Positions 15,058-60,112 of a DNA stretch of 64,000 nucleotides are shown one piece after another. The position numbers were made by a program, and so were the translations under genes. Numbering within the stretch: the first letter of the stretch is position 1; the number at the start of each line of letters is the position of its first letter. Source of the DNA: a virus; the IMG/VR virus record IMGVR_UViG_3300045988_139374, positions 32,001 to 96,000 of that record. One strand, 5' to 3'. Under the pieces are notes generated by a model, which was not told the origin of the DNA, made no database searches, and worked only from the letters and a program-made list of their open reading frames with translations.

Positions 15058-15507
15058 GTGTCTATTGGTTCTGTAATTCAACCTGGAGATAAGTATAATC
15101 ATCTAACAGTACTTGAGAGAGTAGAAGATAGGAAATTTCCTAATGGAGAAAAGAAACCAACTTTTCTCTGTGAGTGTGACTGTCCTGAAAGAAATAGAAT
15201 AGTAGTCATTGGAGAATATCTTAGAAATGGACATACCAAATCTTGTGGTTGTCTATTGAAAGAAGTTCAAAGTCATGTTGGAGATATGACTAGAACTCAT
15301 GGATTATCTAAAACTAAAGAGGCAATAGTTTATTATCATCTTACAAGTAGGCATCCAGATGAACTATGTGAAAGATGGGCAAAAGATAATCCTAATGGAA
15401 TGGTAAATTTCTATAATGATATGCACATCTCTTATAAACCCGGAAGTAGGCTCGCTAAGAAATATCCTACTGAAAATTATGGCCCCAAGAACTGTTATTG
15501 GCTATAA
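15058..15507 (+). CDS. Short paralog of the homing-endonuclease-like family (GTG start)
   Basis: LTVLERV..FLCECDCPE..SCGC module, then LCERW..NFYNDM..YPTENYGPKNCYW. GTG lies 9 nt after aaggag. Confidence 0.5.
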   Translation: MSIGSVIQPGDKYNHLTVLERVEDRKFPNGEKKPTFLCECDCPERNRIVVIGEYLRNGHTKSCGCLLKEVQSHVGDMTRTHGLSKTKEAIVYYHLTSRHPDELCERWAKDNPNGMVNFYNDMHISYKPGSRLAKKYPTENYGPKNCYWL

Positions 15508-15530
15508 ATTTTATAAAAGGAGATAAACAA

Positions 15531-17771
15531 ATGGCAAGTAACTTTGTAGATCAGGTTAGAGAGGCAGCCAGCTATTTAAGTTCGCCAGAACAGATGCTAG
15601 GAAAAGGTCTAAATATTCCTAATAATGCTACTAATAGTGGTGGACGAAAGATTATGGGTAACACCCATCAGTCTCATTCTCTAGTTCTTACTCGTGGAGA
15701 GATTCCATATGTAGCAACTGGCTATGAAAATAGATTTGGTGAAAGATCTTCTTCTATCATTCAGATGGATGATGATTATGAAGTAATCGCTAAGATTTCT
15801 AAATTTTCATATGCTCCTAACCATCACTATTATCTCATTCTCAGAAGTCTTTCTAAGAATGAATTAACTGTAGTAGAACGTATTTCCTATAAATATGTAA
15901 CAGAAGTTTATGGCTATCTTCATAATAATGCCATTATGGATAATTATAGTAACCCTGGTACTATTATTCATAAAGGCGATATTATTAGAAGATCCACTGG
16001 TTTTGATCAGTATGGCAATAAGACTAGTGGACGTAATATCAATGTTGCATATATGGCACTAGATAATAATATGGAAGACTCTGTTGTTATTTCTAGTAGA
16101 TGCAGTGATCTTCTGTCTGCTCCTTTACTTCGTACTGTAAAGATCATTATTAATGAAAATGATATTCCTCTGAATATCTATGGCAATGATGATATGTATA
16201 AGGTATATCCTGATATTGGTGAAGATGTCAAAGATGGCATCCTTATGGCATATAGAAGAGATAAAAAGGAAGAAGCAATCTATACTCAGTCTGTTAAGAG
16301 ATTGCAAGAGATTATGATGTCTGATGATAAGATTACCATTAAAGGTAAGGTCATTGATATTAATATCTATTGTAATAATCCTGAGTATATTAAGACCAAT
16401 GCATATAATCAGCAGTTCCTTGCATATTATGAAGATAGGCAAAGAATGAATCAGGAGATTGTAAATGTAGTTGGTACATTTGCAACTCAAGGATATAGTC
16501 TCAGCTATGACTTGAATAAAATGTTCTATACTGCTAAAGCTGAACTTGAAGGTAAAAAGTTTATTGATAAAAAGCAATTTAGCAATATTACTATTGAATT
16601 TGTAGTAATGGAAAATCGTAAGCTTGGTGTTGGAGATAAAGTTTCTGATAGATATGGCGGAAAGGGTGTTGTTTCTAAGATCGTTGATACTGAATTAATG
16701 CCTAAAATGTATAATGGCCAGCCTATTGATATGATCAAGAATTCTTCTACGATGTATAACCGAGAGAATGCTGGTCAGATCTTTGAGCATGAGATCAATT
16801 ATATTTCTATGAATATCTTAGACAGAATTAGAGAAGGCAATATGAATCTTCAAGATGCATTTGATGACATTTTGAAATTCTTGAGTCTTCAGTCTCCGCA
16901 ACAGTGTCAAGATATGAGCACCTATATCAATTCTTTGGATTATAGACAGCAGAATGCTTTTCTTGAGAGCATTCTGAACAAGACTTGTATCAATGTATCG
17001 AATAATCCCATTTCTGAAACTATGAATATCGATAAATTGATTACTCTCTATAAAGCTTTTCCTTGGATTGATGAAAAGAGAATCTTGGTTCCTATTGTAG
17101 ATTCTCGTGGCAATTATAGATTCATTCCTACCAGAAGACCTATGATTGCTGCTCCTCAGTATGTCATTCGTCTGAAGCAGTTTGCTGAAGAGAAATTCTC
17201 TGCTGCTAGTTTGTCTTCTACTAACCTTAAAAATGAGAATGCAAAGAGTAAAGCTTCTAAGAATTATAGAGAGCCTAACTCTAATACTCCTATTAAACTG
17301 GGTCAGATGGAATCCGGTGACCTGGATCATATGGGAACAGAATATGTTGTTATCAACCTTTTGCTGCATTCTCTGTCTCCTCATGCAAGACGTTTAGTTG
17401 AGCAGATTGCTATTAATGATCCTTACAATGTCAATGTTCAAATTGATACCACATCTAAGAATAGATCTGCAGAAATCCTTAATGCAAGATTGAAGATTAT
17501 GGGATATAAGATTACTTTCTCTAAGAAAAGAAAGATTAAGAGATATCCTATGATGCAAAATGCAGTAGAATTCCTTGGTAATCCTAATGGAATGACTCCT
17601 GCTATTGAATTCATGGATGAAGGATATGATTTTGATCATTGGTATAAGACTGTAGACGAAATTAAGAAGATCAGTAGTATGCTAGGATTTACTATTGATG
17701 CTGTATCTTTCTCTGATGATATAGAAGATGTGCAACCTGTTTATCCTAAAGATGATATTACTGAAGAATAA
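15531..17771 (+). CDS. Multisubunit RNA polymerase beta subunit, C-terminal half
   Basis: GGRKIMGNTHQSHS (compare ANRALMGANMQRQA), GDKVSDRYGGKGVVSKI (compare GDKxAGRHGNKGVVS) and GQMESGDLDHMG. ATG at 15531 follows aaaaggag. Confidence 0.8.
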   Translation: MASNFVDQVREAASYLSSPEQMLGKGLNIPNNATNSGGRKIMGNTHQSHSLVLTRGEIPYVATGYENRFGERSSSIIQMDDDYEVIAKISKFSYAPNHHYYLILRSLSKNELTVVERISYKYVTEVYGYLHNNAIMDNYSNPGTIIHKGDIIRRSTGFDQYGNKTSGRNINVAYMALDNNMEDSVVISSRCSDLLSAPLLRTVKIIINENDIPLNIYGNDDMYKVYPDIGEDVKDGILMAYRRDKKEEAIYTQSVKRLQEIMMSDDKITIKGKVIDINIYCNNPEYIKTNAYNQQFLAYYEDRQRMNQEIVNVVGTFATQGYSLSYDLNKMFYTAKAELEGKKFIDKKQFSNITIEFVVMENRKLGVGDKVSDRYGGKGVVSKIVDTELMPKMYNGQPIDMIKNSSTMYNRENAGQIFEHEINYISMNILDRIREGNMNLQDAFDDILKFLSLQSPQQCQDMSTYINSLDYRQQNAFLESILNKTCINVSNNPISETMNIDKLITLYKAFPWIDEKRILVPIVDSRGNYRFIPTRRPMIAAPQYVIRLKQFAEEKFSAASLSSTNLKNENAKSKASKNYREPNSNTPIKLGQMESGDLDHMGTEYVVINLLLHSLSPHARRLVEQIAINDPYNVNVQIDTTSKNRSAEILNARLKIMGYKITFSKKRKIKRYPMMQNAVEFLGNPNGMTPAIEFMDEGYDFDHWYKTVDEIKKISSMLGFTIDAVSFSDDIEDVQPVYPKDDITEE

Positions 17772-22713: not shown

Positions 22714-24666
22714 ATGGATTTTTCACAATATTCAACCCAATATGGAAGTCTTCAAACTCCGCAAAACATTAATCCATATACAGCAAATGGTATGGATTCA
22801 ATGATGCATGCTCCTACAGAAAATCCAAATGTCGATAAATTTCTTCATGATTTTAATGATAGTCATAGAGAGAGATTTAATGATTTTTGGTTTACCAGAA
22901 ATGATGATGATATTATCGAAGGCATGAAACAGGTTATTCTGTCATGTGAGCGAGATAAATATTTCATCATTAAAGTTATTGGCTTTGAAGTGATTAAAGA
23001 TTATGAAGAAATTCAGAAGATCCTTTATCACTACTATTCTATGAAGACTAAGAATGGTAAGAAAGTCAGTAATGAATATGATTATATCAATCTTAGAGAT
23101 TCTGATGTAATGCTACTCAAGGTAAGATACTATATCAAGTTGAATATTCCTGAAAGTAAAATTAGATTGGATCCTAAGACTGGTGAACTGGAAAAGTCTG
23201 AAGGAGAACTGGAGGTACTTATTGCATTACCGATCTATGTCAATAAGTATTATTTCAGAATCCTTGGCAACTATTATAATCCTATTTTCCAAATTGTTGA
23301 TGGTAGTACTTACAATAACTCCACATCTAATAGTCGTGTACAGAGTATCACTCTGAAAACTCAATTCATGCCTATTAAAGTATATAAGGAATTATATGAT
23401 ATTCCTGATATTGTGGATTGTAGCTATCATCGTTGTGTCTTGTTCACCTCTTATGTCTTCAATAAGAAAACAGATACAATTAAATTCATTTTAGGAAGAT
23501 ATGGATTGCTGGGTGCTATGGAAATGTTGGAGCTTGAAGGGATCTATGTGTCTCCTGCATCTTGTCCTCCTATGGATCCTGAGATCTTCTATAATTTCGA
23601 AGATCCTCATAAGAAGATTGTAGTATCTGTAGTAAAAGGATTGTTTGATAAAGATAATGTCACTCAATCTTTTGTGTATACAGTACTCAAGTCTGTGAAG
23701 AAACTCGAAAAGTATGATGATTTGTATGATCCGAGATATTGGAATAAAATCTTAGGTGCAGATTTCCAATCTGCTACTTTGGATAAAGGTATTCCTGTTC
23801 TTGATTCTTTGGAATCTATTTATGATCTACGTACTAAACAATCTATCAGACTTCCTAAAGAAGATAAAGAAGATTCTTATTGTATTCTTAGATGGATGAT
23901 GAGAGAATTCTCTTTTCTAAAAGCTAGAGACAATATGGATATTTCCACAAAACATCCTAGAATGGCAGATGAGTATCTTCCTGCTATTTATGCAATGAAG
24001 ATTTCTCGTGGCCTTTATAGAATTTCTGATAAAGGCAAAAATGTTACTTTTAAAGATGTAGTAAGAGTGCTTGATACACCTCCTAACTATATCTTGAAGA
24101 ATATCAATGCTGCTAACCTTGTTGATTATGTAGATCTGGTTAATGATAACGATGCTGAACTTGCAATCTCTTATACCTATAAGGGTGTATCTGGTCTTGG
24201 TGATCAAGGTTCTGGTACTGCAGTTCCTATTGTTTATCGTTTCGTGCATCCTAGCCAGCTCGGTAGAGTTGATCTCGATGCTTCCTCTTCTTCTGATCCT
24301 GGCCTGTCTGGATTGATTTGTCCTATGGCTAAGATCAATAATGGATCGTTTACTGATTATAACGAACCTAATGGATGGAAGAAATTCTATATCGAAACAT
24401 TGTCGGAACTCAAGACTATGCATAATATGCAACAGGCTATCGATCTTAAGAAAAGATGTGGTCTGGAATATGATTATGTAAAAGAAGATATGGTTAGAGA
24501 AACTATTGAATCTTATCAGAGACTTATTCCTGCAATTATTGATATTGAAGGCAAGAAAGATTATACTCTTGGAGTTATTATGCCTGATACTACTGTTGTA
24601 TCTGGTGATGACGATGGAGTCGGTGAAGTTTCAACTGGTGTAGAAACTCCTCCTTCTGATGACTAA
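22714..24666 (+). CDS. Multisubunit RNA polymerase beta subunit, N-terminal half
   Basis: YFRILGNYYNPIFQIV (compare the G.FIINGxERV region). VHPSQLGRVDLDASSSSDPGLSGLICPMA (compare HPSHYGRxCPIETPEGxNIGL). Confidence 0.7.
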   Translation: MDFSQYSTQYGSLQTPQNINPYTANGMDSMMHAPTENPNVDKFLHDFNDSHRERFNDFWFTRNDDDIIEGMKQVILSCERDKYFIIKVIGFEVIKDYEEIQKILYHYYSMKTKNGKKVSNEYDYINLRDSDVMLLKVRYYIKLNIPESKIRLDPKTGELEKSEGELEVLIALPIYVNKYYFRILGNYYNPIFQIVDGSTYNNSTSNSRVQSITLKTQFMPIKVYKELYDIPDIVDCSYHRCVLFTSYVFNKKTDTIKFILGRYGLLGAMEMLELEGIYVSPASCPPMDPEIFYNFEDPHKKIVVSVVKGLFDKDNVTQSFVYTVLKSVKKLEKYDDLYDPRYWNKILGADFQSATLDKGIPVLDSLESIYDLRTKQSIRLPKEDKEDSYCILRWMMREFSFLKARDNMDISTKHPRMADEYLPAIYAMKISRGLYRISDKGKNVTFKDVVRVLDTPPNYILKNINAANLVDYVDLVNDNDAELAISYTYKGVSGLGDQGSGTAVPIVYRFVHPSQLGRVDLDASSSSDPGLSGLICPMAKINNGSFTDYNEPNGWKKFYIETLSELKTMHNMQQAIDLKKRCGLEYDYVKEDMVRETIESYQRLIPAIIDIEGKKDYTLGVIMPDTTVVSGDDDGVGEVSTGVETPPSDD

Positions 24667-27475: not shown

Positions 27476-30237
27476 GAATAGTTTATTTTAGATTAAAAGG
27501 ATATATCAAAGTCTTAAATGGCATGGGGCTCGATGAGATTTCAATTAATATGTCAGATTTTAAGAATCGTATTGTTCTTATTCAAGGTGAGAATGGATGT
27601 GCTAAATCTACTATTATTGATGCTATGAGTCCTAATGTAGATACTAGCGATTCTTATAGAACAGATGTTTTCATTGATGAAAACGGTAATAGACAGATTA
27701 TAGAGTATCCTGCAGAAAAAGAGATTCATTATATATACAATGGTCAAAATGGATCTCAGGATTATTATAAGATTCTTATAGTGTCCGGAGTTGATGGTTC
27801 TAGAACTAAGAGATTAGTTACTAAAGCATATATTTCTAAGAATGGTCAAGAACTCAACCCAAATGGAAATATATCTTCTTTTAAAGAGATCAGAGATTCT
27901 ATGATGGGTATAGATCCTATATATTTGGATTTATCTTCTATTTCTTCTGAGCATCGAGGAATAGTAGATATGATGCCTTCTGATAGAAGAAAATATATGG
28001 CTGCATATATTGGATCTCTTGACACATATAATGAAATCTTTAAACAGATTTCTAAAAAAGCAAATTCTCTTAAGTCTTATATGAATACTATCAATGCTAA
28101 ACTTAGTGAATTTGGTAATGAGAATGAATTAAGACTTAAACTTGCTCAATTAAATGATCAGAAAAAGAAGCTTAATTCTGATAGAGATAAATTGATCAAA
28201 GATCTTTCTGAAGCGGAGACTACAGTAAGATTAATTGATCCTGATAATAAAATGCAGGATCTATATCAATCTATTTCGGATAGATTAGGAACCATTGTTT
28301 CTAGTTTAAAGCAAATTGATGATAATCTAATGCAAGAATACACGAAACTTAAAATATCTCCTGAAAATCAGAATATTGGATATATTACTAGTTTCAAAGC
28401 AGATACAGAAAGACAACTTGATTTTCATAAGAAGTCTCTTGATGAAAAGAAAACTAGAATTTCTGTATTAATGGCCCTTAATGAATCTACTGCAAATACT
28501 ATTAATCAAGATAAGAATACCTATGCAGGTATTGAATCTAATATGATTCAGAATAATCTTGCATCATCTATTGAAGATATCACTAATCGTATTGAATCAT
28601 ATAGTGGATATATTTCAGATGATGATATGGGAATCTTGGATAGTGTATCTATGATAGATTTGGATGAGCTTAAGAAGGCATTAGATAATTTCCTTAATAT
28701 CTTAGGAGTGATTCAAGATGCTGGAGGAGAAAGTGAGATTTGTACTAGTATTGATCTCTATAGCCAATATGATCATAGGTCTATTAATAGAGTACAAAAA
28801 TGGATTCAAGAAAAACGAGATGAAATTACTGTGCGCTCTATGGATGTCAACAATCTTTCTGATCAATGTAGGAAAATGAGAGATGATCTTAAAGAGATTA
28901 ATGAGATGGCTCAAACTAGACCTTCTGAATGCACTATTGATACTTGTCCTTATATTGCAAAATATATTGCTAATAAGGATAAAGTATCTCAAGAGCAAAT
29001 TGATGATCTAATTGGTAAGATATCAGTTCTAGAATCTCAGAATAATCTTGATAAGGTTCAGATAATCTCTTTGGAGAAACAAGGAAATATTCTTCAGCTA
29101 TTAGATGAAGCGATGATTCAGATTAAGAGTTGCATGGGTACTATTAGAAAGATTAGATCTCTTGATGATATTTTCTCTGATAATAAAATTTATAATTTGA
29201 TTAAAAATCATTATGCTTTCACAGAGTTTAATATTGTTGGAGATCTAATTGAAAAAGCCAATATCTATGTGGTCCTTAAAAGCTTGCTTGATCAGAGAAA
29301 ATCAATAGAAGCAGATTATAAGATCTATCAGAATAACAAATCTATGATGGATAAGCTTAATGCTTCTATTGAAGAAAATGAAAAACTATATAAAGAAAGA
29401 GAAAGTGAATTAAAAGAATTAAATAAAAATTGTACTTTTATATCTGGTCTTATTGATACTCTAGAGTCACAGATTGCTATTGCCAATTCTATGATAGAAT
29501 TATTGCAATCTAAAAATCAAATGGATCAAGATAAAAACTCTCTTAAGCAAGAATTTGATTCTGTAAAAGATAGAATTAAAACAGTAAAAGAGAAAGTAGA
29601 TTCTTTAAATACTATTAAAAATAGTATTACAATAATCGAAGATAATCTTGGTCCTATTAATGATACTATTAATGGATTGAATTATTCTTTAAGTAGTATC
29701 GTTGATTATCAACGAGAATATGCAGATAGTGCAGACAGATATGATAAGATATCATTTATTAGAAATGCATGTAATCCTGGAAATGGTTTAGGCATTCAAT
29801 CTGAATATATCAAGAGATATATGAATGATGTGATTATTGACTGCAACCAGATGCTAGGATATATGTTTAATGGATCTATAAGACTTGAAGTTCCAGTAAT
29901 TAATGAGAAACAATTCTCTATTCCTTTTATTGGTCCTAATGGAATTGTAGTACCTGATATTTCTAATGGATCTACTGCACAGAAATGTATGATTGGTCTA
30001 GTATTCTCTTGTGTTGCTATGATGAAGAGTAGTACAACTTATAATATTCCTAGATTTGATGAAATAGATGGCGGTCTAGATCAACAGAATAGAGTAATGT
30101 TTATCAATGTACTAAATTCTATATTAAACTTCATGGGAAGTGAGCAGTGTATTATTTGCTCTCATAATATGGAATTTGATACTCAGTCTACTACAAGAAT
30201 TATATGTTCTCATACAGGTATTAGAATCGAGCAATAA
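27472..30237 (+). CDS. SbcC/Rad50/T4 gp46-like SMC-type ATPase
   Basis: N-terminal Walker A (LIQGENGCAKST), long heptad-rich middle, C-terminal signature-like SNGSTAQKCM and Walker B/D-loop (RFDEIDGGLD). Confidence 0.7.
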   Translation: MRIVYFRLKGYIKVLNGMGLDEISINMSDFKNRIVLIQGENGCAKSTIIDAMSPNVDTSDSYRTDVFIDENGNRQIIEYPAEKEIHYIYNGQNGSQDYYKILIVSGVDGSRTKRLVTKAYISKNGQELNPNGNISSFKEIRDSMMGIDPIYLDLSSISSEHRGIVDMMPSDRRKYMAAYIGSLDTYNEIFKQISKKANSLKSYMNTINAKLSEFGNENELRLKLAQLNDQKKKLNSDRDKLIKDLSEAETTVRLIDPDNKMQDLYQSISDRLGTIVSSLKQIDDNLMQEYTKLKISPENQNIGYITSFKADTERQLDFHKKSLDEKKTRISVLMALNESTANTINQDKNTYAGIESNMIQNNLASSIEDITNRIESYSGYISDDDMGILDSVSMIDLDELKKALDNFLNILGVIQDAGGESEICTSIDLYSQYDHRSINRVQKWIQEKRDEITVRSMDVNNLSDQCRKMRDDLKEINEMAQTRPSECTIDTCPYIAKYIANKDKVSQEQIDDLIGKISVLESQNNLDKVQIISLEKQGNILQLLDEAMIQIKSCMGTIRKIRSLDDIFSDNKIYNLIKNHYAFTEFNIVGDLIEKANIYVVLKSLLDQRKSIEADYKIYQNNKSMMDKLNASIEENEKLYKERESELKELNKNCTFISGLIDTLESQIAIANSMIELLQSKNQMDQDKNSLKQEFDSVKDRIKTVKEKVDSLNTIKNSITIIEDNLGPINDTINGLNYSLSSIVDYQREYADSADRYDKISFIRNACNPGNGLGIQSEYIKRYMNDVIIDCNQMLGYMFNGSIRLEVPVINEKQFSIPFIGPNGIVVPDISNGSTAQKCMIGLVFSCVAMMKSSTTYNIPRFDEIDGGLDQQNRVMFINVLNSILNFMGSEQCIICSHNMEFDTQSTTRIICSHTGIRIEQ

Positions 30238-30241
30238 AAAT

Positions 30242-30268
30242 AGGGTAGAGGAATAAATCCTCTACCCT
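30242..30268 (+). terminator. Terminator, copy 1 of a second exact repeated hairpin
   Basis: agggtagaggaataaatcctctaccct followed by a T-run. Identical to 35953-35979. Confidence 0.7.
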
Positions 30269-30299
30269 ATTATTTTTTAATAAAAATGCAGATTCAATT

Positions 30300-32913: not shown

Positions 32914-34470
32914 ATGCAAGACAATGAAAAAAGTAAAAAGAAATCTTTTATAGTAAATAATGAACAATTTGAATTATTAATCCCAGGATATCCAAAAGGT
33001 TCTGATATTACAGTTATTAATACTTCTTATATTCCTAGAAAAAAGAATGATGATGGAACGTATCAAAAGGATTATATTGTAATTCTATTTAGAGACAATA
33101 TAACTGGTGGTAAAAAAGTTCATGTGATTCAAGAACCTTTGTATACTTTCTATAGAATCAAAGATGAAAGTCAAATTCCTAATTATACAATGTTCTTCAT
33201 TGAGAAAGAAAAGGTAGTTCCTTATACTTGTAAATATGCAAATATTCTGAAAGCAATTGCTGAGGTTACTGGAAGAATTGATGAGTTTCTTGAAAATGTA
33301 AACAATGGTCAGTATAGTGAGAATAAAAAACTTCATACAGATCCTAGTATATTCATGTCTGATATTCAGATTGAGAATTATTATAGATTTCTGTTTAATC
33401 TATCTTACAAGAATGAAGTTTTTAAACTTACTAAGGGATTTCTAGATATTGAAACTGATATTGCATATTGTCTAAATCAGTTTCCTGAACCTGGTGAAGT
33501 TCCTATTAATGCAATAGCTTATTGCGATGAAGCTCACAATACAGTGTATCAGTTTATATTAAATGATAGAAATAATCCTTTGGTTGAAGAGTATATGCAT
33601 TATACTGATAGACCTGGGTTCCAGAAAGAATTGTATGATTTCGTTGTAAATGCTGTAGGTGGATATAAGAAAGCTGTTAAATTCGGAGTAGATAAGATGG
33701 AATATAAACTTATCTTCTTTGATGACGAATATGAGCTTATTAAAACAGCATTTAAAATCATCAAAGCTACAGTTCCAGATTTTATTGAAGTCTGGAATAT
33801 GGCATTCGACTTGAATTATATTATAGAGAGAATTAAAGTTCTTGGCCATGATGAAACTGAAACTATATGTGATGGAAGATATCCATATTCATTTTTGAAA
33901 TTCTATGTAGATGAGAGAAACAAGAATAACTATGAAGAACGTGGTGATTACGTTGCCGCTTCTATGTATACTGTTTGGCTCGATCAGATGATCGAATTTG
34001 CATCTAGAAGAAAAGGTAGAGGCAGATATCAGAGTTTTAAACTGGATGCAATTGGTGAAGTTGTAGCTGGTGTTAGAAAACTAGATTATTCTCATATTAC
34101 TACTGACTTAGGTAAGCTTCCATATATTGATTTTAAAACATTCTCGTTCTATAACGTAATGGATGTTATTGTTCAGAAATGTATTGAAGCTAGTACTAAT
34201 GACCTTGAATATGTGTTTACTAAATGTCTAGTCAATAATACTAACTATGCGAAATGCCATAGACAGTCTGTATATCTTGCAAATCGATTCTGTAAAGACT
34301 TTTATGAATATGGATATGTAATCGGTAATAATAAAAATCTTTGGAATGAAAAGCCTACTACAAAATTTCCTGGAGCTATGGTTGGTGATCCAACTCATAA
34401 TGCAGATAGTGTAATGCTTCACATTAATGGTAGGCCAACTCAGTTGTCAAATAATGCTGTTGATTTCGAT
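32914..34470 (+). CDS. Family-B DNA polymerase, exon 1 (N-terminal and 3'-5' exonuclease domains)
   Basis: Exo I FLDIETD, Exo II VWNMAFDLNYI, Exo III YNVMDVIV. The frame ends at ..AVDFD immediately before the expected SLYPS. Confidence 0.85.
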
Positions 34471-34859
34471 TAACTAAGTAGTCGCATCTTTATAGGAATA
34501 TAGAGATGAAAACTTTATTGCAAAAGCTGGAAAAGGCTAAAGCTCTTCTGCCATTAGAAATAATGGAATCGAAAGATAGAAATAAGTGAAGAGATGGACC
34601 AAGGTGAAATAAAAGCTATATATTGAATAAGAGATAAATATATAGTCCTAAAGTCTATTAACAATGTCTAATCAGCACCTAGATAATTCTAGAGTTCAAC
34701 GACTATTCCGAAAGGAATTAGGGCCAAGTGGTACCGAAGTATAAAGGGTCCCAATGCTTATATAAGTAATGGATTGTGATATAGTCTAGCCTCTAGGTAA
34801 CACCTAGAGAAGTTCATAAGAGAACTGCAAAGATTAACGACCTTTGTGAATAAACTGCG
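34471..34859 (+). mobile_element. Group I self-splicing intron (ORF-less) in polB
   Basis: gttcaacgacta at 34694-34705 (R) and gatatagtc at 34778-34786 (S). Exon cgat can pair with intron gtcg. Intron ends in G. Splicing gives VDFD-YSSLYPSII (motif A). Confidence 0.85.
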
Positions 34860-35345
34860 TACTCTTCTCTTTATCCATCTATTATTCTTGAGAATAATCT
34901 TGCTCCTAATACACAGGTTGGTAGAATTATTATTGAAGATCCTGATGATCCTATGAAACCTTTCTCTCTTAATGAGCATCCTGATATGTATTCTTCTGGA
35001 GATGAAGTTGCAAAATATTCTCGAGGTGGTGAATTCCTTGAGAATATGATCTCTGGCAATATAATGGAATTCTGTAGAAGATGGATGCGACTTGGAGATA
35101 TCAATCAATGTATGGATGATATTAGAGAATACTTCAAATATAATCCCTCTTATGGTAGAGGAATTGATGATGAAGGATCTAATCAGCAAGCTATATTCTT
35201 TACAAGAGATAATATGATAGATGCAGTTAATTTTGTAGAGAAAGATTATAATCTTGATACTGCAGGATTAATTTTCTATAGCAATCTTGACAACGATATA
35301 AAGAAAGATCTTTCTGAAGAAATTAAAAAAGGAGCGTTTCTGTGA
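34860..35345 (+). CDS. Family-B DNA polymerase, exon 2 (motif A region), ends before motifs B/C
   Basis: In frame with the ORF 34953-35345. Reads YSSLYPSIILENNLAPNTQVG... No KxxxNSxYG or DTDS before the stop. Confidence 0.8.
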   Translation, partial: YSSLYPSIILENNLAPNTQVGRIIIEDPDDPMKPFSLNEHPDMYSSGDEVAKYSRGGEFLENMISGNIMEFCRRWMRLGDINQCMDDIREYFKYNPSYGRGIDDEGSNQQAIFFTRDNMIDAVNFVEKDYNLDTAGLIFYSNLDNDIKKDLSEEIKKGAFL

Positions 35346-35944
35346 GTAGTGATTTTAAAGAATTCTGTTCATATATTCAACCAATATTGAATAGCTGTTC
35401 AGGGTTTATTAAAACTGATGGTTATATGACTCATTTTCCTGGAGTTATTGTAACTATGGATGCAGATCAGACATTCTATGGAATCATTCATATACCAGTA
35501 ATTTATAATCTATATTTTACTTGTATTATTAGTGATATCATGGCAATGAAGAAACCAGAAAATCAGATATTTGAAAATCTCTATTTTAGTGGAAGTAATA
35601 TTAAAGGAAATACGCTATTAAGAGCTTTTGAATTATTTGATAATATTGATAGTAAAGTTAAATGTATCTATTATGAACCTGATTGCTATAATATTAATGG
35701 TTTCACAACTGTATCTGCAGTGTCAAATATTGGAAGTGTAAATGTATTTACAGCTTCTGATAGATATAGAATACCTGCTAGTAAAGCAATTACTCCATTA
35801 TCTAAAGGAGATACTGCATCTCTTAAAATATATGATTATGTAGTAAATCCTATAGATCCAGGTGTAAAGACTATCAGATATTCTATGTTTAAAAAGAAAT
35901 TCAAACTAGTAGTAGATGTATATTCTAACATTCTTACAATTTGA
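35342..35944 (+). CDS. Hypothetical protein (GTG start, GTGA overlap with polB exon 2)
   Basis: RBS aaaggag lies 8 nt upstream of the GTG. 200 aa. Confidence 0.5.
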   Translation: MSSDFKEFCSYIQPILNSCSGFIKTDGYMTHFPGVIVTMDADQTFYGIIHIPVIYNLYFTCIISDIMAMKKPENQIFENLYFSGSNIKGNTLLRAFELFDNIDSKVKCIYYEPDCYNINGFTTVSAVSNIGSVNVFTASDRYRIPASKAITPLSKGDTASLKIYDYVVNPIDPGVKTIRYSMFKKKFKLVVDVYSNILTI

Positions 35945-35952
35945 ATAAAAAC

Positions 35953-35979
35953 AGGGTAGAGGAATAAATCCTCTACCCT
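35953..35979 (+). terminator. Terminator, copy 2 of the second exact repeated hairpin
   Basis: agggtagaggaataaatcctctaccct followed by a long T-run. Confidence 0.7.
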
Positions 35980-36011
35980 ATTATTTTTTTTTGAAAATTA
36001 CTTACTTCCAA

Positions 36012-36051: not shown

Positions 36052-38391
36052 ATGGCAAATGATAAAAATGCCAATCAGAGAAAGATCAATAATTCTCTAG
36101 ATTTGCTAGATCGTCAGGTCAATGACCTATACAGAACTACATATTCAACAACTAATACATCTGAAGAACTTAAATCTCAGCTATCTGATAAACTAGATGA
36201 TGCTATCAAGAAGTCTACACAAGAGGATGGAGATATCCAGAATCTTTCTAATACTTCTAAGATTATTATGAAGCTTATGAAGCCTGAAAATAATGGAGCT
36301 TCTAATAAGCTTAATAAATCTTTCGGTAAAGGTGTAGGAGATGATATCTCTGTTCTGTTTAACAATGCTGGTGTCCAGGCGTCTTTAATGGATACTTATG
36401 CAAAGACTAAATGGATCACTGAGCTTGATAATGAATTTGATCTAATCTGCAAATATATGCCTAAGTTACAAGCAGCTCTAGATATTAAGAGAGATGCAGT
36501 TCTTTGTTCTGATTTTTATACTAAAGAATTTCTTAATATAAGACCTAGATATGAAAATCCTACATCCTCTGCAAATGCTGCTATTTCTAGCAATATCGAA
36601 GAAATGGTTAAGAAGTATGATCTTTCCAATAGAGCAGAAAAATGGTATGACAATACTTCTAAGTATGGCGAACAATTTGTTTACTGTGTGCCTTATTCTT
36701 CAGCATTCCAAGAGCTTCTAAGGAGAAAGAATAATACTGGATACACTGCAACAATCCAGCATGAATCTACTATTTCTTCTAATAAAAATAGTAAGCCTAA
36801 TGTAACTGCAAATGCTGTAGTAAATGAAGCCGGTGAGATTTCTATTAAGGTTAACTTTGATACTTCTAAGGTTATTATAGAAGCTGTAGAGAAAGAACAA
36901 TATGTACGAAAAAATAGAGCTGCTGTAAATCCTAAATTTAGAGGATTGTCTGAATCTTTTATCATTACAGAATCTAATGATAAATTTGAAGATCATCTGA
37001 AAAAGAATGGTAAATCTACAGAAGTCAATTTTGATAATACAATTGGAGATACCATTGATTGGGAAGATGATAAGACAGCTGCAAATGGTCTAGTGGATCC
37101 TAATGGAACCGATTCTACTGCTAAGATTAGTCTGAATGGTGCAGTTCTTACTGATATTAAGCATGATAGAATTATTCCTATTTATATTGAGGATACAATA
37201 TTTGGCGGCTATTATATTAGATATAGTGAAGATCAGGATATCGATATCAATTCTATTGATAATATCACTGGATATAATTCTGTAACTGGAATGTTTGATA
37301 ACGGTCCTATTGGTGCTCAATCTTCTAATTATGATGAAGACGAAGTAAATAATAAGGATATGCTTCTAAGATCTCTAGCAGCAAATATTTCTGATAAAAT
37401 TGACTCTGCATTCATTAATGCAAATGCAGATCTCAAGAAAGAGTTGTATTTGCTTCTAAAGTTTAATGATAAATATAATCAGCTTGCTCATACTCCTGAT
37501 TTGGATATTGTATTTATTCCTGCAGATGATATTCATCATTTGAAGTTCAATGACGATCCTATTACTCATAGAGGAATTAGTGATCTTTGGAATTCGCTAG
37601 TATCTGCTAAGCAGTGGATTATGCTTAATACAACTTCTGTATTGGGATGGACTACTAGAGGCTTTGATCGTAGAATTTACTATGTGAAGCAGTCTCTAGA
37701 CACTAATGTCGCACAATCTCTTCTGAATGTTATTAGTACTATTAAGAAGGGCAATTTTGGTATTCGTCAGATGGAATCTGTTAATAATATTCTTAATATG
37801 GTTGGCAGATTTAATGACTTTGTTATTCCTGTTGGACCTAATGAAGATCCTCCGATTCGGTTTGATACTCAATCTGGTCAGCAATTTGATTTTCCTCAAG
37901 ACTTAATGGCAAATCTAGAAGAATCTGCTGTTAATGCAACTGATGTTCCTCTAGAAATTGTTAATAGTTCTACTGGTATGGACTTTGCAGTTAGATATAC
38001 AATGACTAATGCAAAGCTTCTCCGTAATGTCTTGAAGAGGCAAGCAAAGATGGAAGCATTCCTAGCTGATATCTTTACTAAGATTTATAAGTTCGAATAC
38101 AATGAAGATGTAGAGCTTACAGTCAATCTTCCTATTCCTGCTTTCTTGAGTATGACTCAAGGATCTCAGCTACTTCAGAGTGCTACTCAGTATGCTGAAT
38201 CTATTACTGATATTGAAATGAATGGCGAGCAAGATGAAGCTAAGAATGCATTCAAGAAACTTGTCATTCGTAAGCTAATTCCTTCTTATCTGTCTGATAA
38301 GGACATTGAAGAAATTAAGAATATTATCAAGATTGATAATAATATTACTAGCAGTGAAAATGGATTGAGTGCAGAAGATCTAGCAGACTAA
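36052..38391 (+). CDS. Large late protein (779 aa), possible portal or other virion protein
   Basis: Preceded by a late-type motif and a strong RBS. The function guess rests only on size and context. Confidence 0.3.
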   Translation: MANDKNANQRKINNSLDLLDRQVNDLYRTTYSTTNTSEELKSQLSDKLDDAIKKSTQEDGDIQNLSNTSKIIMKLMKPENNGASNKLNKSFGKGVGDDISVLFNNAGVQASLMDTYAKTKWITELDNEFDLICKYMPKLQAALDIKRDAVLCSDFYTKEFLNIRPRYENPTSSANAAISSNIEEMVKKYDLSNRAEKWYDNTSKYGEQFVYCVPYSSAFQELLRRKNNTGYTATIQHESTISSNKNSKPNVTANAVVNEAGEISIKVNFDTSKVIIEAVEKEQYVRKNRAAVNPKFRGLSESFIITESNDKFEDHLKKNGKSTEVNFDNTIGDTIDWEDDKTAANGLVDPNGTDSTAKISLNGAVLTDIKHDRIIPIYIEDTIFGGYYIRYSEDQDIDINSIDNITGYNSVTGMFDNGPIGAQSSNYDEDEVNNKDMLLRSLAANISDKIDSAFINANADLKKELYLLLKFNDKYNQLAHTPDLDIVFIPADDIHHLKFNDDPITHRGISDLWNSLVSAKQWIMLNTTSVLGWTTRGFDRRIYYVKQSLDTNVAQSLLNVISTIKKGNFGIRQMESVNNILNMVGRFNDFVIPVGPNEDPPIRFDTQSGQQFDFPQDLMANLEESAVNATDVPLEIVNSSTGMDFAVRYTMTNAKLLRNVLKRQAKMEAFLADIFTKIYKFEYNEDVELTVNLPIPAFLSMTQGSQLLQSATQYAESITDIEMNGEQDEAKNAFKKLVIRKLIPSYLSDKDIEEIKNIIKIDNNITSSENGLSAEDLAD

Positions 38392-43869: not shown

Positions 43870-45231
43870 TCAATAGTTATTGCCCTTAATAGAAACACTA
43901 TGGGTATGCTGTGCGATGCTATGAGTATGAGCAGTCGGCTTAGTGTAGCTGTGGCTATGAGCAGCAACCTTAAGAGCATAGGTGAAGGTGTTAGTGGTCG
44001 GAGTAATAGTATGGCTATGAGCTCCAATAGTAACACTGTGGCTATGAGCAGCGATAGTAACACTATGAGAGTGGCCACCTGCAGAGGTAGTAGCAACAGT
44101 ACCAGCACCTGCAGCACTCAGAGTTGCACCGGTGACATAAGTAATAGTATCACCAACAGTTGCAGAGACACTATGAGTATGTGCACCTGCAGCACCAGTT
44201 ACAGAGACACCAGTAACAACAGACTTGGAGCCAGTAGCAACATTGACAGTATGGCTATGAGCAGCAATAGTAACACTATGAGTATGTGCACCTGCAGCAC
44301 CAGTTGCAGAGACACCAGTAACAACAGTCATAGAACCAAGACTCAGAATGCCATCAGCATAGCTTGCAGGAGATGCTGCAGTACCAGTACTAGGAGTGAT
44401 GCTATGAGAGTGACTACCAGCAGAGCTGGAATTAACAGTAGCACCGCCACCAGCACTTAGAGTTGCACCAGTGACATAAGTCAGAGTTGCAGTACTAGGA
44501 GTGATACTATGAGTATGATTGCCAGCGGAACCAGTTGCAGTACCAACAGCAGTAACAGGAGAAAGTGTTGCAGTTGCAACATTGACAGTATGGCTATGAG
44601 CAGCAATAGTAACACTATGAGTATGTGCACCAGCAGAAGTAGAAGTAATAGTAGCCGCACCAGCTGCTGCAGAAGTAACAGTAGCACCACCACCAGAACC
44701 AGTAACAGTAGGAGCACCTGCAGTATCAGTAATACTAACAGTAGTATCGATAGCACCACCAGCACCAGTGTTAGAAGCTGCACCTGCACCTGCAGAACCA
44801 GTTGCCGTAGCACCAGCAGTAGCTGCAGTACCACTTAGAGTAATCTGGCCCTTCTTAGCGTAATCAGTCAGGTCAGTTGCAGTGGTGCCAATCTTTTCCC
44901 AGACATACTGAACATAACCAGCAGCGCCAGTACTATCGGGGCCCTTATCAATAGTAACAAATTCAACATAGGTACCAGAAATACCACCATCATTAGCGAC
45001 GAGGTAAATCTTACCCATAGTACTAGCTGCAGCAGTGGTAGCAGGAGCACCAATAGCACCATCTCCAGCAGCTTCTTTACGAGCATTATCAGTTACAAGC
45101 TGAACGCCTGCATTAATCATATCAGCAATGTTTTGCCAAGTCTTCGGATTACCAGATCCGTCCTGGATGTACTTAGCATTAAGGTCATAAGATACGCCTT
45201 CGACCTTAATCTGTTTGATGTTATCAGCCAT
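43870..45231 (-). CDS. Tail-fibre-like protein with 13 HxH motifs
   Basis: A/T/G/S-rich repeats of the form AGAHTHSVTIAAHSHTVNVAT. High-expression codon usage. Its N-terminal domain is related to that of the 45421 gene product. Confidence 0.6.
   Translation of the reverse strand: MADNIKQIKVEGVSYDLNAKYIQDGSGNPKTWQNIADMINAGVQLVTDNARKEAAGDGAIGAPATTAAASTMGKIYLVANDGGISGTYVEFVTIDKGPDSTGAAGYVQYVWEKIGTTATDLTDYAKKGQITLSGTAATAGATATGSAGAGAASNTGAGGAIDTTVSITDTAGAPTVTGSGGGATVTSAAAGAATITSTSAGAHTHSVTIAAHSHTVNVATATLSPVTAVGTATGSAGNHTHSITPSTATLTYVTGATLSAGGGATVNSSSAGSHSHSITPSTGTAASPASYADGILSLGSMTVVTGVSATGAAGAHTHSVTIAAHSHTVNVATGSKSVVTGVSVTGAAGAHTHSVSATVGDTITYVTGATLSAAGAGTVATTSAGGHSHSVTIAAHSHSVTIGAHSHTITPTTNTFTYALKVAAHSHSYTKPTAHTHSIAQHTHSVSIKGNNY
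44237..44292. repeat. 56-nt exact direct repeat, copy 1 (inside the fibre gene)
   Basis: gcaacattgacagtatggctatgagcagcaatagtaacactatgagtatgtgcacc, identical to 44576-44631. Confidence 0.85.
44576..44631. repeat. 56-nt exact direct repeat, copy 2
   Basis: Identical to 44237-44292. Encodes the repeated AHTHSVTIAAHSHTVNVA unit. Confidence 0.85.
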
Positions 45232-54782: not shown

Positions 54783-55007
54783 ATGGTTATTCAAAATCCA
54801 TCAACTCCAATTACTGTTTATTATCAAGATAGTACCACTAATCAGAGTTTTATGAATATGTATTATTTTCTTAAAGCTCGTGGTATTAAGAATAATAAAT
54901 TCTTTTTGTTGTTGTATGATGGTGGATTAATGGGCGTAGACCCAAGGGACCCAAATCTACCTAAACCAATGAAGATGCGCGTTCTTCGAGAATGCATGGT
55001 TAACTAT
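54783..55007 (+). CDS. terL: Terminase large subunit, exon 1 (3' boundary uncertain by a few nt)
   Basis: A 75-76 codon ORF ending ...RECMVNY(W), followed by intron-like sequence. Continues logically into ...FIRELCRIP (compare T4 gp17 VYFAETYCAI). Confidence 0.7.
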
Positions 55008-56230
55008 TGGTAAACTAAGAAATGCCCCTCATTATGGTGACATAGTGTTGAATGCTATTGAACTGCTGGGAAAGGCTAAAGCTCTCTTACCTACAATCAG
55101 GTGTCGAAAGACAGAAACAAGTAGAGAGATGGGTCATGGTGAAATAAAAGCTTATTATATTTCTATCCCTATTATAATAAGTCCTAAAACCTAAAATCAA
55201 TGTCTAATCAGCAACCAACAAACTTATATTAATCTATTTCAATTTTACTAGGAGGGTTAATATGAGTACCAACGGCAAACCTTTAAACGATATTACTGGA
55301 AAGATTTATCACAGTAACAATTGTGGAGATTTTGAAATCTTAGGTGAGATCGAGTATGTAGGAAAAGAGATTCATACAAGTCCATCAAATACAAGATATG
55401 CTTTGAGATTCCTGAATACAGGATATGTAACTGATGCATCACTAGATGCAATTAGACATGGAAGAGTATATGATAGATATACTCCAAATGTTGCTGGGGT
55501 TGGATATATTGGAACAAATATGATTATCAGTGATCCATATCCTTGCCAGTTTTATAAAGCTTGGAACGATATGATGAATAGATGCTATAATAAAGCTGAT
55601 AAAGATTATCCTTTATATGGAGGCATCGGAATCACAGTAGATCCTAGATGGCATAACTTCTCTACATTTATGCTTGATGTTCCATTTCTTCCGCTTTACG
55701 AAAAGAAGTTAATGTATCCTTCTATTTATCAACTTGATAAAGATTTTCTACAAATTCATGTTCCTAAAAATAAAAGAATTTATTCTAGAAATACATGTAT
55801 GTGGTTATCAAAACTTGATAATGTTTTAATGATGTCAAAAGATCGTGATATTAAAGATGGTAATCCATATGTAGGTGTAGTCTATTCTCACAATTGCTGG
55901 AAAACTGTAATAAATGGAGCAGTCTATGGAAAATTTAATGATCCTAAAGCTGCTGCAAATCTTTTCAATTATTTATATCCAAAGCTTAAAGGACCTTTTA
56001 ATGATATCACTATTCTAAATAATGTAGAATATATTCCATTAGAAGAATTGTCGAAATATATTGTTGGTTCAACGACTATCCAAACTGGAGTAGAGCCGCC
56101 TAAAACGGTTCGAAGTAATAGCACACCTCCAATTAATTTTACAGCTACAATTGGAGATGAAGATATAGTCTGAGCTTATGTAACACATAAGATTAACAAG
56201 CGTTAATATATAAAAAATAACGCAGGTACG
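55008..56230 (+). mobile_element. Group I intron in terL carrying a homing-endonuclease-like ORF
   Basis: The 5' part (55065-55213) is clearly homologous to the polB intron (34526-34677). gttcaacgacta at 56067-56078 (R) and agatatagtc at 56161-56170 (S). The ORF sits in a loop closed by aaccaacaa (55213-55221) and ttgttggtt (56061-69). Exact splice sites not resolved. Confidence 0.8.
55262..56173 (+). CDS. Intron-encoded homing-endonuclease-like protein of the YGGRGI family
   Basis: WNDMMNRCYNKADKDYPLYGGIGITVDPRW.NFSTF and YQLDKD...YSRNTCMW match the free-standing paralogs. RBS aggagg. The last codons overlap the ribozyme R and S elements. Confidence 0.7.
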   Translation: MSTNGKPLNDITGKIYHSNNCGDFEILGEIEYVGKEIHTSPSNTRYALRFLNTGYVTDASLDAIRHGRVYDRYTPNVAGVGYIGTNMIISDPYPCQFYKAWNDMMNRCYNKADKDYPLYGGIGITVDPRWHNFSTFMLDVPFLPLYEKKLMYPSIYQLDKDFLQIHVPKNKRIYSRNTCMWLSKLDNVLMMSKDRDIKDGNPYVGVVYSHNCWKTVINGAVYGKFNDPKAAANLFNYLYPKLKGPFNDITILNNVEYIPLEELSKYIVGSTTIQTGVEPPKTVRSNSTPPINFTATIGDEDIV

Positions 56231-58361: not shown

Positions 58362-59504
58362 ATGAAAGAATTATTAATCGAAGGAAAATATGCTACTGCA
58401 AAGGTATTTACAGTAGACAATGAGAAGGATGCAATTGATCAGCATGCTAAAGCACAGATTAAAATGATCTGCGATGATGAAGTATCTAAGGATGCTATCA
58501 TTCGAGTTATGCCTGATGTCCATGCTGGAAAAGTTGGTCCTATTGGTCTTACAATGAAATTAAATCATTGTAGAATCATTCCTAATCTTCTTGGTAATGA
58601 TCTTGGATGTGGAGTTAGCATTTTCAAGATCCATCCTGGGAAGAAACTTACTACATCTGATTTTAATAAATTGGATAAAGTAATTAGAGAGAATATTCCT
58701 GTAAATCTTGCAAGAGGGCCTAGGGATTTATATGGATTTGGTGTGATCAATGCTTTAGGATTTAATACTCCTATACATTCTGATAAGCTGACTCTCTGTT
58801 ATGGAACTCTTGGAAATGGTAATCATTTCATTGAGATCGATATGGATGAGCATGGAGAATATTATCTTACTATTCATACCGGTAGTAGATCTATTGGCCC
58901 TGTTATTAATGATTATTTTAATAGAAAGGGTCAAGAAGAACTCAAATTAAAAGGAATCAATGTTCCTTATGAAATGACATATGTAGAAGATATGTTATAT
59001 GTCCAATATGTAGATGATGTTCGAAAAGCAACTGAATTTGCAAGATTGAATAGAAATAGAATTAGATCTATCATTTGCAGAAAGATGAAATGGGATTCAG
59101 AAATTGAATTTAATGCTCCTCATAATACAATTTCTGAAAAGCATTGCCTCTGTAAAGGAGCAGCATGCGAATTTGAAATGGAGAATAATATCTATATTCC
59201 TATCAATATGAAAGATGGCATTCTCTATGGAGAATTAAATGCAAAGAATAGTGATGAATGGAATTATTCTCTTCCTCATGGTTCCGGCAGATTAATCAAA
59301 AGAAGCGAAGTTAAAAACTCTGTTACTCTTAATATGTTTAAGAAGGAAATGGATGGAGTATTCTCTACATCTGTTTCTAAGGATACACTTGATGAGTCTC
59401 CTTTTGCATATAGAAGAATTGATGAAATCAGAGAAGCTGTATCTGATATTGTCAATGTAAAAGGTGTACTTACTCCTGTGTATAATTTCAAAGGAGGAAA
59501 TTAA
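58362..59504 (+). CDS. rtcB: RtcB-family RNA 3'-phosphate ligase
   Basis: MPDVHAGKVGPIG, GNGNHFIEID, HTGSRSIG, APHNT and LPHGSGR, the ordered RtcB metal- and GMP-binding motifs. Confidence 0.85.
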   Translation: MKELLIEGKYATAKVFTVDNEKDAIDQHAKAQIKMICDDEVSKDAIIRVMPDVHAGKVGPIGLTMKLNHCRIIPNLLGNDLGCGVSIFKIHPGKKLTTSDFNKLDKVIRENIPVNLARGPRDLYGFGVINALGFNTPIHSDKLTLCYGTLGNGNHFIEIDMDEHGEYYLTIHTGSRSIGPVINDYFNRKGQEELKLKGINVPYEMTYVEDMLYVQYVDDVRKATEFARLNRNRIRSIICRKMKWDSEIEFNAPHNTISEKHCLCKGAACEFEMENNIYIPINMKDGILYGELNAKNSDEWNYSLPHGSGRLIKRSEVKNSVTLNMFKKEMDGVFSTSVSKDTLDESPFAYRRIDEIREAVSDIVNVKGVLTPVYNFKGGN

Positions 59505-60112
59505 TGCTAATTCAAATTAGTTCTGGTATCGGAGCTCCTGCAGAATGTGAGCGAGCAGTTTATCTCTTTTCACAGAAGCTCATCTCTGAACTTGATGCTA
59601 CTATTGTCAAGAAGAAAGAATCTGGATTTCATAAAGGATGCTATAAATCTTGCATTCTGAAAACTGATAAGCAAATTAATTCCATTGAATACAATGGCAC
59701 TATTCAGTGGATCTGTAAAAGTCCTTTTAGAATTGGATGGCCTAGAAAGAATTGGTTCATTGATGTGAGCACCATTGATGAAGCTCAATTTATCGATCCT
59801 AATGTTGAAGGGCAAATCTCTTATGAAACTTTTCGTAGTGGAGGAAATGGAGGACAGAATGTAAATAAAGTAGAAACTGCAGTAAGAGGAGTTCATAAGC
59901 CTACTGGGATTTCTGTAGTTTCTATGAAGGAAAGATCTCAGCTTCAGAATAAGAAGGATGTAGAAAATCGCATTTCTGAAAGAATTGTAGATATTAATAA
60001 AAATAGTGAAGCAATTCAAAAGAATTCTGAATGGAAAGAGATCAATAAAATTGTACGTGGCAATCCTATTAGAGTATATAAGGGACCAAATTTTAAAAGA
60101 ATCGATAAATAA
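59504..60112 (+). CDS. prfH: Peptide chain release factor H-like protein
   Basis: GGQ motif (SGGNGGQNVNKVETAVR). GTIQWICKSPFR..RKNWF closely parallels E. coli PrfH as I remember it. TAATG overlap with rtcB, with the SD inside the rtcB 3' end. Confidence 0.8.
   Translation: MLIQISSGIGAPAECERAVYLFSQKLISELDATIVKKKESGFHKGCYKSCILKTDKQINSIEYNGTIQWICKSPFRIGWPRKNWFIDVSTIDEAQFIDPNVEGQISYETFRSGGNGGQNVNKVETAVRGVHKPTGISVVSMKERSQLQNKKDVENRISERIVDINKNSEAIQKNSEWKEINKIVRGNPIRVYKGPNFKRIDK

Follow-up and report, generated by a model that had tools for sequence, protein, structure and literature searches.

A group I intron-interrupted gene for the likely N-terminal subunit of a two-subunit family B DNA polymerase in an AR9/PBS1-like jumbo phage

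This report concerns a family B DNA polymerase (PolB) gene in a 64,000-nucleotide stretch of viral DNA (IMG/VR record IMGVR_UViG_3300045988_139374, positions 32,001 to 96,000), which is called the window throughout. The gene is divided within polymerase motif A by a group I intron, overlaps a second open reading frame (ORF) at its 3′ end and is followed by a terminator and the portal gene (Table 1). The frame of exon 1 is closed by an in-frame TAA (ORF 32914-34473), and another frame, open from about 34854, reads YSSLYPSIILENNLAPNTQ... as far as the TGA at 35343-35345. After removal of the intron the product, termed the N-half in the following, has 680 amino acids (aa). An earlier interpretation of the same letters, referred to here as the sequence-only reading, had proposed the splicing correctly and given a length of 681 aa, in which the stop codon was probably counted.

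The motifs of the proofreading exonuclease and of the first palm element named in that reading are present (Exo I DIETD, Exo II NMAFD, Exo III YNVMD and motif A DFDYSSLYPS), with invariant catalytic residues. Exon 2 contributes the remainder of motif A, a short palm segment, a family-specific conserved tail (KYSRGGEFLEN...) and the C-terminus ...KKGAFL. Only two Pfam domains were detected in the N-half, namely DNA_pol_B_exo1 (PF03104, E 8e-8) and 23 residues of DNA_pol_B (PF00136, profile positions 63-85 of 453), which correspond to motif A. The N-half family profile aligns with residues 93-457 of RB69 gp43, that is with the exonuclease domain through motif A, and the hidden Markov model (HMM) of the family matches exon 1 with E 3e-278 and exon 2 with E 9e-60 (HMM positions 516-667) among the frames of the window. 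An AlphaFold2 (AF2) model of the N-half has a predicted local distance difference test score (pLDDT) mostly of 80-95 for residues 10-330 and mostly of 65-92 for residues 330-470, with low values for residues 475-680, and was matched to RB69/T4 gp43 by Foldseek with E 4e-17.

The spliced frame stops 158 aa past motif A, close to the earlier estimate of about 160 aa after SLYPS, and ends ahead of motifs B and C. These two motifs were searched for in the whole window and found in no credible ORF by regular expressions in six frames; the catalytic subunit gp152 of phage AR9 as a tblastn query gave 0 matches, and two profiles of the catalytic family run against the six frames (hmmsearch --max) reached a best E-value of 0.045, which is noise. 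The profile search thus brought no motif B or C to light in 34860-35944 either, and the earlier statement that no other ORF of the window carries them was borne out. Judged from its sequence, the N-half is a polymerase subunit and not a whole PolB.

The short form of the gene is a conserved one. A search of 5.8 billion proteins (E up to 0.001) returned 961 homologues of the N-half, the best 120 of which share 46-82% identity with it and are about 620-710 aa long where uninterrupted (one has 850 aa) and about 500-540 aa where cut by an intron. In an alignment of 22 sequences, with identities down to 45% and a mean column identity of 57%, all members end at the same point and keep the C-terminal peptide ...I[KR]xGA[LF][LI]. 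The catalytic residues of Exo I-III and motif A are invariant in this alignment, as are the tail motif Y572-x-R-x-G-E-F (Y572, R574, G576, E577, F578) and D606.

The sequence-only reading had left a choice between a catalytic half encoded elsewhere in the genome and a remnant. That motifs B and C are absent from the ORF and the window would fit a decaying remnant or pseudogene of a full-length PolB in a phage replicated by another polymerase. Such a remnant is very improbable and, given the conserved length, end point and catalytic residues, excluded for practical purposes: more than 100 homologues keep the length and the end point, the gene is retained together with a self-splicing intron and a coupled downstream gene, and the same architecture is found in the cultured, viable phages AR9, PBS1 and MarsHill. 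Still less probable is a sequencing or assembly frameshift near 35340 that hides a fusion of the polymerase with ORF 35342-35944, an event that had been named as one that might restore a long ORF and for which the overlap of the two ORFs by 4 nt in different frames could be taken as a sign. The same N-half stop, with the next ORF overlapping or abutting it, occurs in about 60 independent loci from many samples, which excludes such an artefact. Furthermore, an independent ENA contig agrees with the window at 100% identity over 21.5 kb, and the downstream ORF has no palm or thumb features and is modelled on its own as a clamp-like fold.

A candidate for the remaining part of the polymerase is provided by phage AR9, in which the annotation reads 'exonuclease and partial catalytic domain' for gp132 and 'DNA-polymerase catalytic subunit' for gp152 (641 aa, encoded about 15 kb away; PMC5312081). 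AR9 gp152 carries motif B (KLLANSFYGA) and motif C (VVDTDS), and its homologues, here termed the C-half family, match Pfam PF00136 and PF20286 (divDNApol). Invariant in this family are K133, N137 and G141, D330-T-D-S333, K398-N-E, and K412 and Y415. The C-half profile aligns with residues 451-548 of the Tgo polymerase (fingers, motif B to motif C) and with residues 704-825 of RB69 (palm, thumb); since the N-half covers RB69 93-457, the two families complement each other. The C-half family alignment shows no conserved acidic residue ahead of motif B. The motif A Asp would therefore have to come from the N-half, with the break inside the palm and an active site built from two chains.

The position of the two genes relative to each other was examined in IMG/VR by pattern scans, which gave 73 N-half loci, and by two C-half profile scans (181 and 225 loci encoding a relative), from each of which the best 80 loci were used. 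At least 16 related viral contigs carry both halves, in support of a catalytic half encoded elsewhere in the genome; the distance between them is 7-73 kb, they lie on the same or on opposite strands, and they are adjacent in none of these contigs. In the two nearest relatives (contigs _125976 and _126218), whose N-half is 77% identical to that of the window, the C-half gene has the same orientation as the N-half gene and is found 66-73 kb upstream of it, and human-gut contigs 264-269.6 kb in length carry C-half variants 84% identical to theirs. If these distances are extrapolated to the window, the partner gene would be expected about 33-40 kb to the left of position 1.

Taken together, the product of 32914-35345 is very likely the N-terminal subunit of a replicative family B DNA polymerase that consists of two subunits, as in AR9/PBS1-like and other group 1 jumbo phages. 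In the proposed mechanism, the group I intron in motif A would splice itself out and give rise to the 680-aa product, which carries the N-terminal domain, an intact 3′-5′ exonuclease for proofreading (Exo I-III) and, in the first element of the palm, the metal-binding D519. The remainder would be a separate divDNApol protein of about 750 aa with fingers and motif B, the palm hairpin with DTDS, KKxY and the thumb, as seen in the relatives. Both proteins would bind non-covalently and form one active site, to which the N-half contributes motif A and the C-half motifs B and C; the conserved N-half tail (about 100 aa) and an N-terminal extension of the C-half (about 90 aa) may serve as docking segments. 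The product of ORF 35342-35944 would be made in step with the N-half and, with less certainty, might act as a clamp-fold processivity subunit.

Several points weigh against this interpretation. In the account of Iyer et al. (PMC7824862), the palm of the group 1 polymerase is whole and the exonuclease stands alone, which would make motif A of the N-half redundant. The association of the N-half with the C-half is one that we infer. The main gap in the argument is that the candidate C-half proteins P0274, P0286 and P0279 were traced to other contigs and none of them to scaffold_15, the ENA contig that matches the window. The flanks of the C-half loci share a single overlap with the window, a 51-nt intron match. 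The low model confidence of N-half residues from about 475 to 680 is compatible with a fold that depends on a partner and proves nothing.

The N-half could, alternatively, be a stand-alone proofreading exonuclease that works in trans, as E. coli epsilon does, with motif A as a structural relic and the divDNApol protein as a self-sufficient polymerase. The poor modelling of the palm and tail part of the N-half speaks for this possibility, which is nevertheless considered unlikely: D517, D519 and L-Y-P of motif A and the tail YSRGGEF are invariant in the 22 aligned sequences despite their divergence, motif A persists in AR9 (DLSSLYPS) and in Serratia phage Moabite (DIDVKSSYPS), and the C-half alignment offers no conserved acid ahead of motif B that could substitute for the motif A Asp.

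Several lines of evidence identify the intron. In uninterrupted homologues DFDYSSLYPS is continuous over the exon junction. The IMG/VR contig _127334 (locus L100) is 95-97% identical to the window at the DNA level and lacks exactly 34471-34859; the product of this intron-less allele matches that of the window at 678 of 681 positions. Logan contigs with a downstream ORF identical to that of the window likewise carry the polymerase gene either interrupted or with 680 aa. The same insertion site is occupied in seven related loci, in all of which the 5′ exon ends with T and the intron with G (junctions in the window GAU/UAAC...GCG/UAC). A consensus fold of six introns contains a P1 helix in which the splice site falls at a U.G pair (alignment columns 10-21) in all six, and compensatory changes were observed in 29 of the 90 predicted pairs. 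The pairings GCUGG/UCAGC and GACUAU/AUAGUC are invariant; they correspond to the P/Q and R/S (P7) elements of the group I consensus. The Rfam model Intron_gpI did not match the intron at the gathering threshold nor at E up to 10, so this family model evidently does not cover the phage subgroup, and with Rfam negative the identification is based on the intron-less allele and the covariation.

Further introns of this kind were observed. A second group I intron of the same family lies at about 55006-56270 in the window; its positions 55013-55213 are 71% identical to the 5′ part of the polymerase intron, and it has the same 5′ junction (GGT/TAAC). It bears an HNH homing-endonuclease ORF (55262-56173) and appears to split the large terminase (TerL) gene, the first exon of which ends with ...ECMVN near 55005, with the TerL ORF 56324-58246 downstream. 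In relatives of the phage, the two nearest among them, the C-half gene is cut within motif B (KIDVNG/IYG) by a related group I intron (locus L184, 4406-4783; locus L252, about 8850-10000). These C-half introns differ between strains, being either 378 nt long and free of an ORF or equipped with a 219-aa HNH ORF or a 272-aa ORF.

Both polymerase genes are frequent targets of group I introns of one family, which would suit a covalent joining of the two halves, post-transcriptionally by trans-splicing introns or post-translationally by split inteins, and a PolB split with an intein has been reported for the jumbo phage MIJ3 (PMC6892783). For the gene described here such joining is scarcely probable. 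The N-half has a conserved stop after a conserved tail and an overlapping next gene, the C-half has a start of its own as well as an extension at the N-terminus, and the introns are complete cis-introns with both splice sites present. Moreover, no Hint or intein domain was matched by Pfam in the N-half at E up to 1, the precomputed domains of the C-half are PF00136 and PF20286 only, and by eye the C-half N-terminus shows no His-Asn-Cys/Ser/Thr junction and the N-half tail is not intein-like.

The gene downstream of the N-half, termed ORF200, is coupled to it. The GTGA overlap and the separate Shine-Dalgarno sequence described in the sequence-only reading are as stated there (Table 1). Among 62 related loci, the N-half is followed by an ORF of 180-280 aa in 61, the start of which mostly falls in a range from about 40 nt before to 12 nt after the N-half stop, and 53 of 54 distinct downstream ORFs belong to one family with ORF200 according to an iterated HMM search. 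The family evolves faster than the polymerase, with 70% identity where the N-half shows 77% and 31% where the N-half shows 50%. The terminator that closes the PolB-N/ORF200 unit is supported by a weak bidirectional terminator-like Rfam match. A 55-nt element with this hairpin occurs twice in the window (92.7% identity), at 30233-30287 after the SbcC gene and at 35944-35998 after ORF200.

ORF200 has no sequence match in Pfam, PHROG or the PDB and falls by sequence into no known clamp family. An AF2 model built with 23 library representatives as alignment reached a mean pLDDT of 89.8 and a predicted template modelling score (pTM) of 0.86, and the top 50 Foldseek matches in the PDB are almost all sliding clamps, including PCNA, DnaN, Rad9-Hus1-Rad1 (9-1-1) and RB69 gp45, the best being PCNA 1rwz (E 1.1e-3, prob 0.97). 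In BFVD, the model matched uncharacterised gut Myoviridae proteins (E 2.5e-8 to 5e-5), followed by viral beta clamps, PCNA and gp45-type clamps; the clamp-like matches include a 255-aa entry that may be gp205 of phage BpSp. The matches of ORF200 to clamps are marginal (E 1e-3 to 3e-2), and with template modelling scores (TM-scores) of only about 0.35-0.5 the DNA-clamp fold predicted by the model is regarded as probable and not as proven. The earlier view that this ORF does not look like a palm or thumb domain agrees with the clamp fold of the model.

BpSp gp205 (255 aa) is encoded at the same position as ORF200, overlaps the N-half stop by ATGA and is homologous to AR9 g129 (E 2e-28). No homology of the ORF200 family to AR9 g129, AR9 g131, BpSp gp205 or Madawaska gp139 was detected by HMM search or BLASTP, nor by hhalign against g129, gp139 and a g129/gp205/gp139 profile. 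It is possible, if short of probable, that ORF200 is a highly diverged clamp-fold processivity or bridging subunit of the split polymerase with gp205 and g129 as its positional counterparts. If true, jumbo phages of the AR9/phiKZ type would have a three-part replicase consisting of an exonuclease plus motif A subunit, a catalytic subunit and a clamp-like subunit, and the hydrophobic C-terminal tails …GA[LF][LI] of the N-half and …[YF]SN[IV][IV]x[ILF] of the C-half would be candidate clamp-binding peptides. ORF200 would then fill the processivity-factor gap reported for group 1 jumbo phages. A scan of 28 window proteins identified no clamp loader, and a literature search turned up no paper that connects a clamp with AR9-like or phiKZ-like phages. 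The gene with the predicted clamp fold that is coupled to the N-half goes beyond anything claimed in the sequence-only reading; it is the most interesting lead from this locus and possibly new.

Table 1. Features of the polymerase locus in the window (positions are those of the window).
Feature	Position	Strand	Remarks
PolB N-half gene, whole	32914-35345	+	680 aa once the 389-nt intron is removed
PolB N-half exon 1	32914-34470	+	519 aa, C-terminal ...NNAVDFD; from ORF list and translation
Exo I D178-I-E180-T-D182	33445-33459	+	D178, E180, D182 invariant (22-sequence alignment)
Exo II N295-M-A-F298-D299	33796-33810	+	N295, F298, D299 invariant (22-sequence alignment)
Exo III Y413-N-V-M-D417	34150-34164	+	Y413, N414, D417 invariant (22-sequence alignment)
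Motif A D517-F-D519/Y-S-S-L-Y-P-S526	34462-34470 and 34860-34880	+	split by the intron; D517, D519, L523, Y524, P525 invariant
Group I intron	34471-34859	+	389 nt, no ORF; between D519 and Y520 in motif A
PolB N-half exon 2	34860-35345	+	161 aa and TGA; starts YSSLYPSII
Shine-Dalgarno sequence AGGAG of ORF200	35330-35334	+	7 nt upstream of GTG 35342
ORF200	35342-35944	+	200 aa; GTG start overlaps the N-half TGA (GTGA)
Intrinsic terminator, strong	35953-35979, also given as 35953-35989	+	11-bp stem (6 GC pairs) and T run; closes the PolB-N/ORF200 unit, 5′ of the portal gene
Portal gene	36052-38391		3′ of the PolB-N/ORF200 unit

The window stems from a human-gut contig of an AR9/PBS1-like jumbo phage. 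The independent contig mentioned above, ENA ERZ28595964 scaffold_15 (LIJU14-1_SAMEA2338710_METAG-scaffold_15), comprises 269,204 bp, and the window corresponds to positions 30,212-94,211 of that record. Relatives of the window's contig come from human-gut metagenomes; near-identical DNA was not found in cultured phages by megablast. The nearest cultured matches of the N-half are those of the uracil-DNA jumbo phages AR9/PBS1, BpSp, the Staphylococcus phages MarsHill, S6 and Madawaska, and Yersinia phage phiR1-37, with 26-30% identity. Pieces of multisubunit RNA polymerases (RNAPs) are encoded at 15498-17771, 22714-24666 and 61001-62236, and the window also encodes NAD-ligase, NrdD, SbcC, portal, tail sheath and TerL proteins. 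The gene order SbcC, PolB-N, portal, sheath equals that of AR9 g139, g132, g128 and g126.

Two other possibilities were rejected in the course of the analysis. ORF 22714-24666, which has a PHROG 'polymerase' match, was considered as the missing half and is an N-terminal piece of the RNAP beta subunit, since its product matches the beta subunit of the AR9 non-virion RNA polymerase (nvRNAP; PDB 7s00, E 8e-38). A crAss-like phage with stop-codon recoding was dismissed because no tRNAs are present, TGA readthrough meets more stops within 15 codons and the gene content is AR9-like.

Some further genes and sequences of this phage and its relatives are recorded here. The NrdD (anaerobic ribonucleotide reductase) gene is located at 8168-10315 (Pfam E 2e-175), as would suit a host living anaerobically in the gut. 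At 58362-59504 lies a gene for the RNA ligase RtcB, directly followed by a gene for an RF-1-domain protein (PrfH/ArfB-like, 59504-60112), a pairing known from bacterial RNA-repair or ribosome-rescue modules. Several internal direct repeats of 60-238 nt with 77-92% identity are found at 44025-44667 within a tail-fibre-like ORF on the minus strand (43870-45231). In human-gut relatives, thymidylate synthase (ThyA) and dihydrofolate reductase (DHFR) genes lie a few kb 3′ of the C-half (locus L252, 14120-16284).

Short PolB genes of this kind are common in gut and environmental jumbo-phage contigs. For annotation this means that they should not be flagged as truncated or as pseudogenes; the designation 'DNA polymerase, N-terminal (exonuclease plus motif A) subunit' would be appropriate, and a divDNApol partner is to be expected tens of kilobases away in the genome bin. 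The two-gene polymerase also offers a natural system for studying how a replicative polymerase is assembled from parts. To our knowledge, no split polymerase of this lineage has been reconstituted so far.

The two-gene arrangement as such is already known as the AR9/group 1 jumbo-phage type. The N-half is homologous to AR9/PBS1 gp132 (30% identity over 79% of the query, tblastn E 1e-50), and in the reciprocal tblastn search AR9 gp132 matches both exons of the window; both proteins end after motif A. As in AR9, motifs B and C and the thumb belong to a separate partner gene, seen here in the relatives, and the neighbourhood of SbcC, PolB-N, portal and sheath genes is shared. Introns interrupt polymerase genes in AR9-type phages as well, and these too are jumbo myoviruses with multisubunit RNAPs. 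Other cases of the AR9 type are BpSp gp207/206 and that of Staphylococcus phage Madawaska, whose 'DNA polymerase exonuclease subunit' was deposited with an intron. The DNA polymerase induced by PBS2, as purified in the 1970s, reportedly consisted of several polypeptides of about 70-80 and 23-27 kDa and is not drawn on as evidence here. For MarsHill, intron-disrupted 'DNA polymerase subunits' are described in the paper on that phage.

There are also differences from AR9. AR9 gp132 ends about 60 aa past DLSSLYPS, whereas the N-half of the gut phages is about 90 residues longer after motif A, and a distance of 66-73 kb between the halves in the nearest relatives of the window compares with about 15 kb in AR9. 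The coupled downstream gene of the window has no detectable sequence similarity to AR9 g129 or BpSp gp205. The ThyA and DHFR genes next to the C-half of the relatives suggest that the clade, unlike AR9/PBS1, may use thymine or a modified base and not uracil in its DNA.

The divergent polymerase of group 1 (phiKZ-like) jumbo phages has been described as lacking a fused exonuclease, with no classical clamp or primase reported from these phages (Iyer et al., 2021; PMC7824862). The C-half family resembles it in matching PF20286 and PF00136 and in having the exonuclease encoded elsewhere. Unlike the stand-alone exonuclease of that description, the exonuclease protein bears motif A both here and in Moabite gp314 (582 aa, 'DNA polymerase', locus L286, 2444-4189), where the motif stands about 60 aa from the end, so that the break falls inside the palm. 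The annotation of the gene next to gp314 names a phiKZ match. A break within the palm thus seems to extend beyond AR9-like phages, possibly across group 1 jumbo phages.

The sequence-only reading had likened the split to the two-gene gp43 of T4-like Aeromonas phages. The closest counterpart is instead AR9/PBS1 gp132/gp152, of the group 1 jumbo-phage type with dispersed halves. In Aeromonas phages 25 and 44RR (Petrov et al., 2010, cited in PMC2988022), only a short untranslated sequence or a seg endonuclease gene separates the cistrons 43A and 43B, and the two polypeptides co-purify and are active. The likeness is that of a PolB made from two separately translated polypeptides; the Aeromonas split looks recent, whereas here the halves are 7-73 kb apart in either orientation and the split is common to a whole phage lineage. 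The gene that follows the N-half belongs to the ORF200 family and is not the C-half, so the Aeromonas type of adjacency does not apply. In Pseudomonas jumbo phage MIJ3, PolB is divided by a split intein with an HNH gene between adjacent ORFs (PMC6892783). The polymerase described here shares with that of MIJ3 the division of the catalytic core over two genes and differs from it in that no intein features were found. A two-gene PolB with a divided catalytic core is also known from Methanothermobacter.

With regard to ORF200, the shorter length of 200 aa distinguishes it from gp45 (228 aa), and the absence of sequence similarity to any clamp family sets it apart from clamps, as do its low TM-scores of 0.35-0.47. 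In its predicted fold it resembles PCNA, DnaN, T4/RB69 gp45 and herpesvirus UL42/UL44, and its gene is physically and translationally coupled to that of the polymerase.

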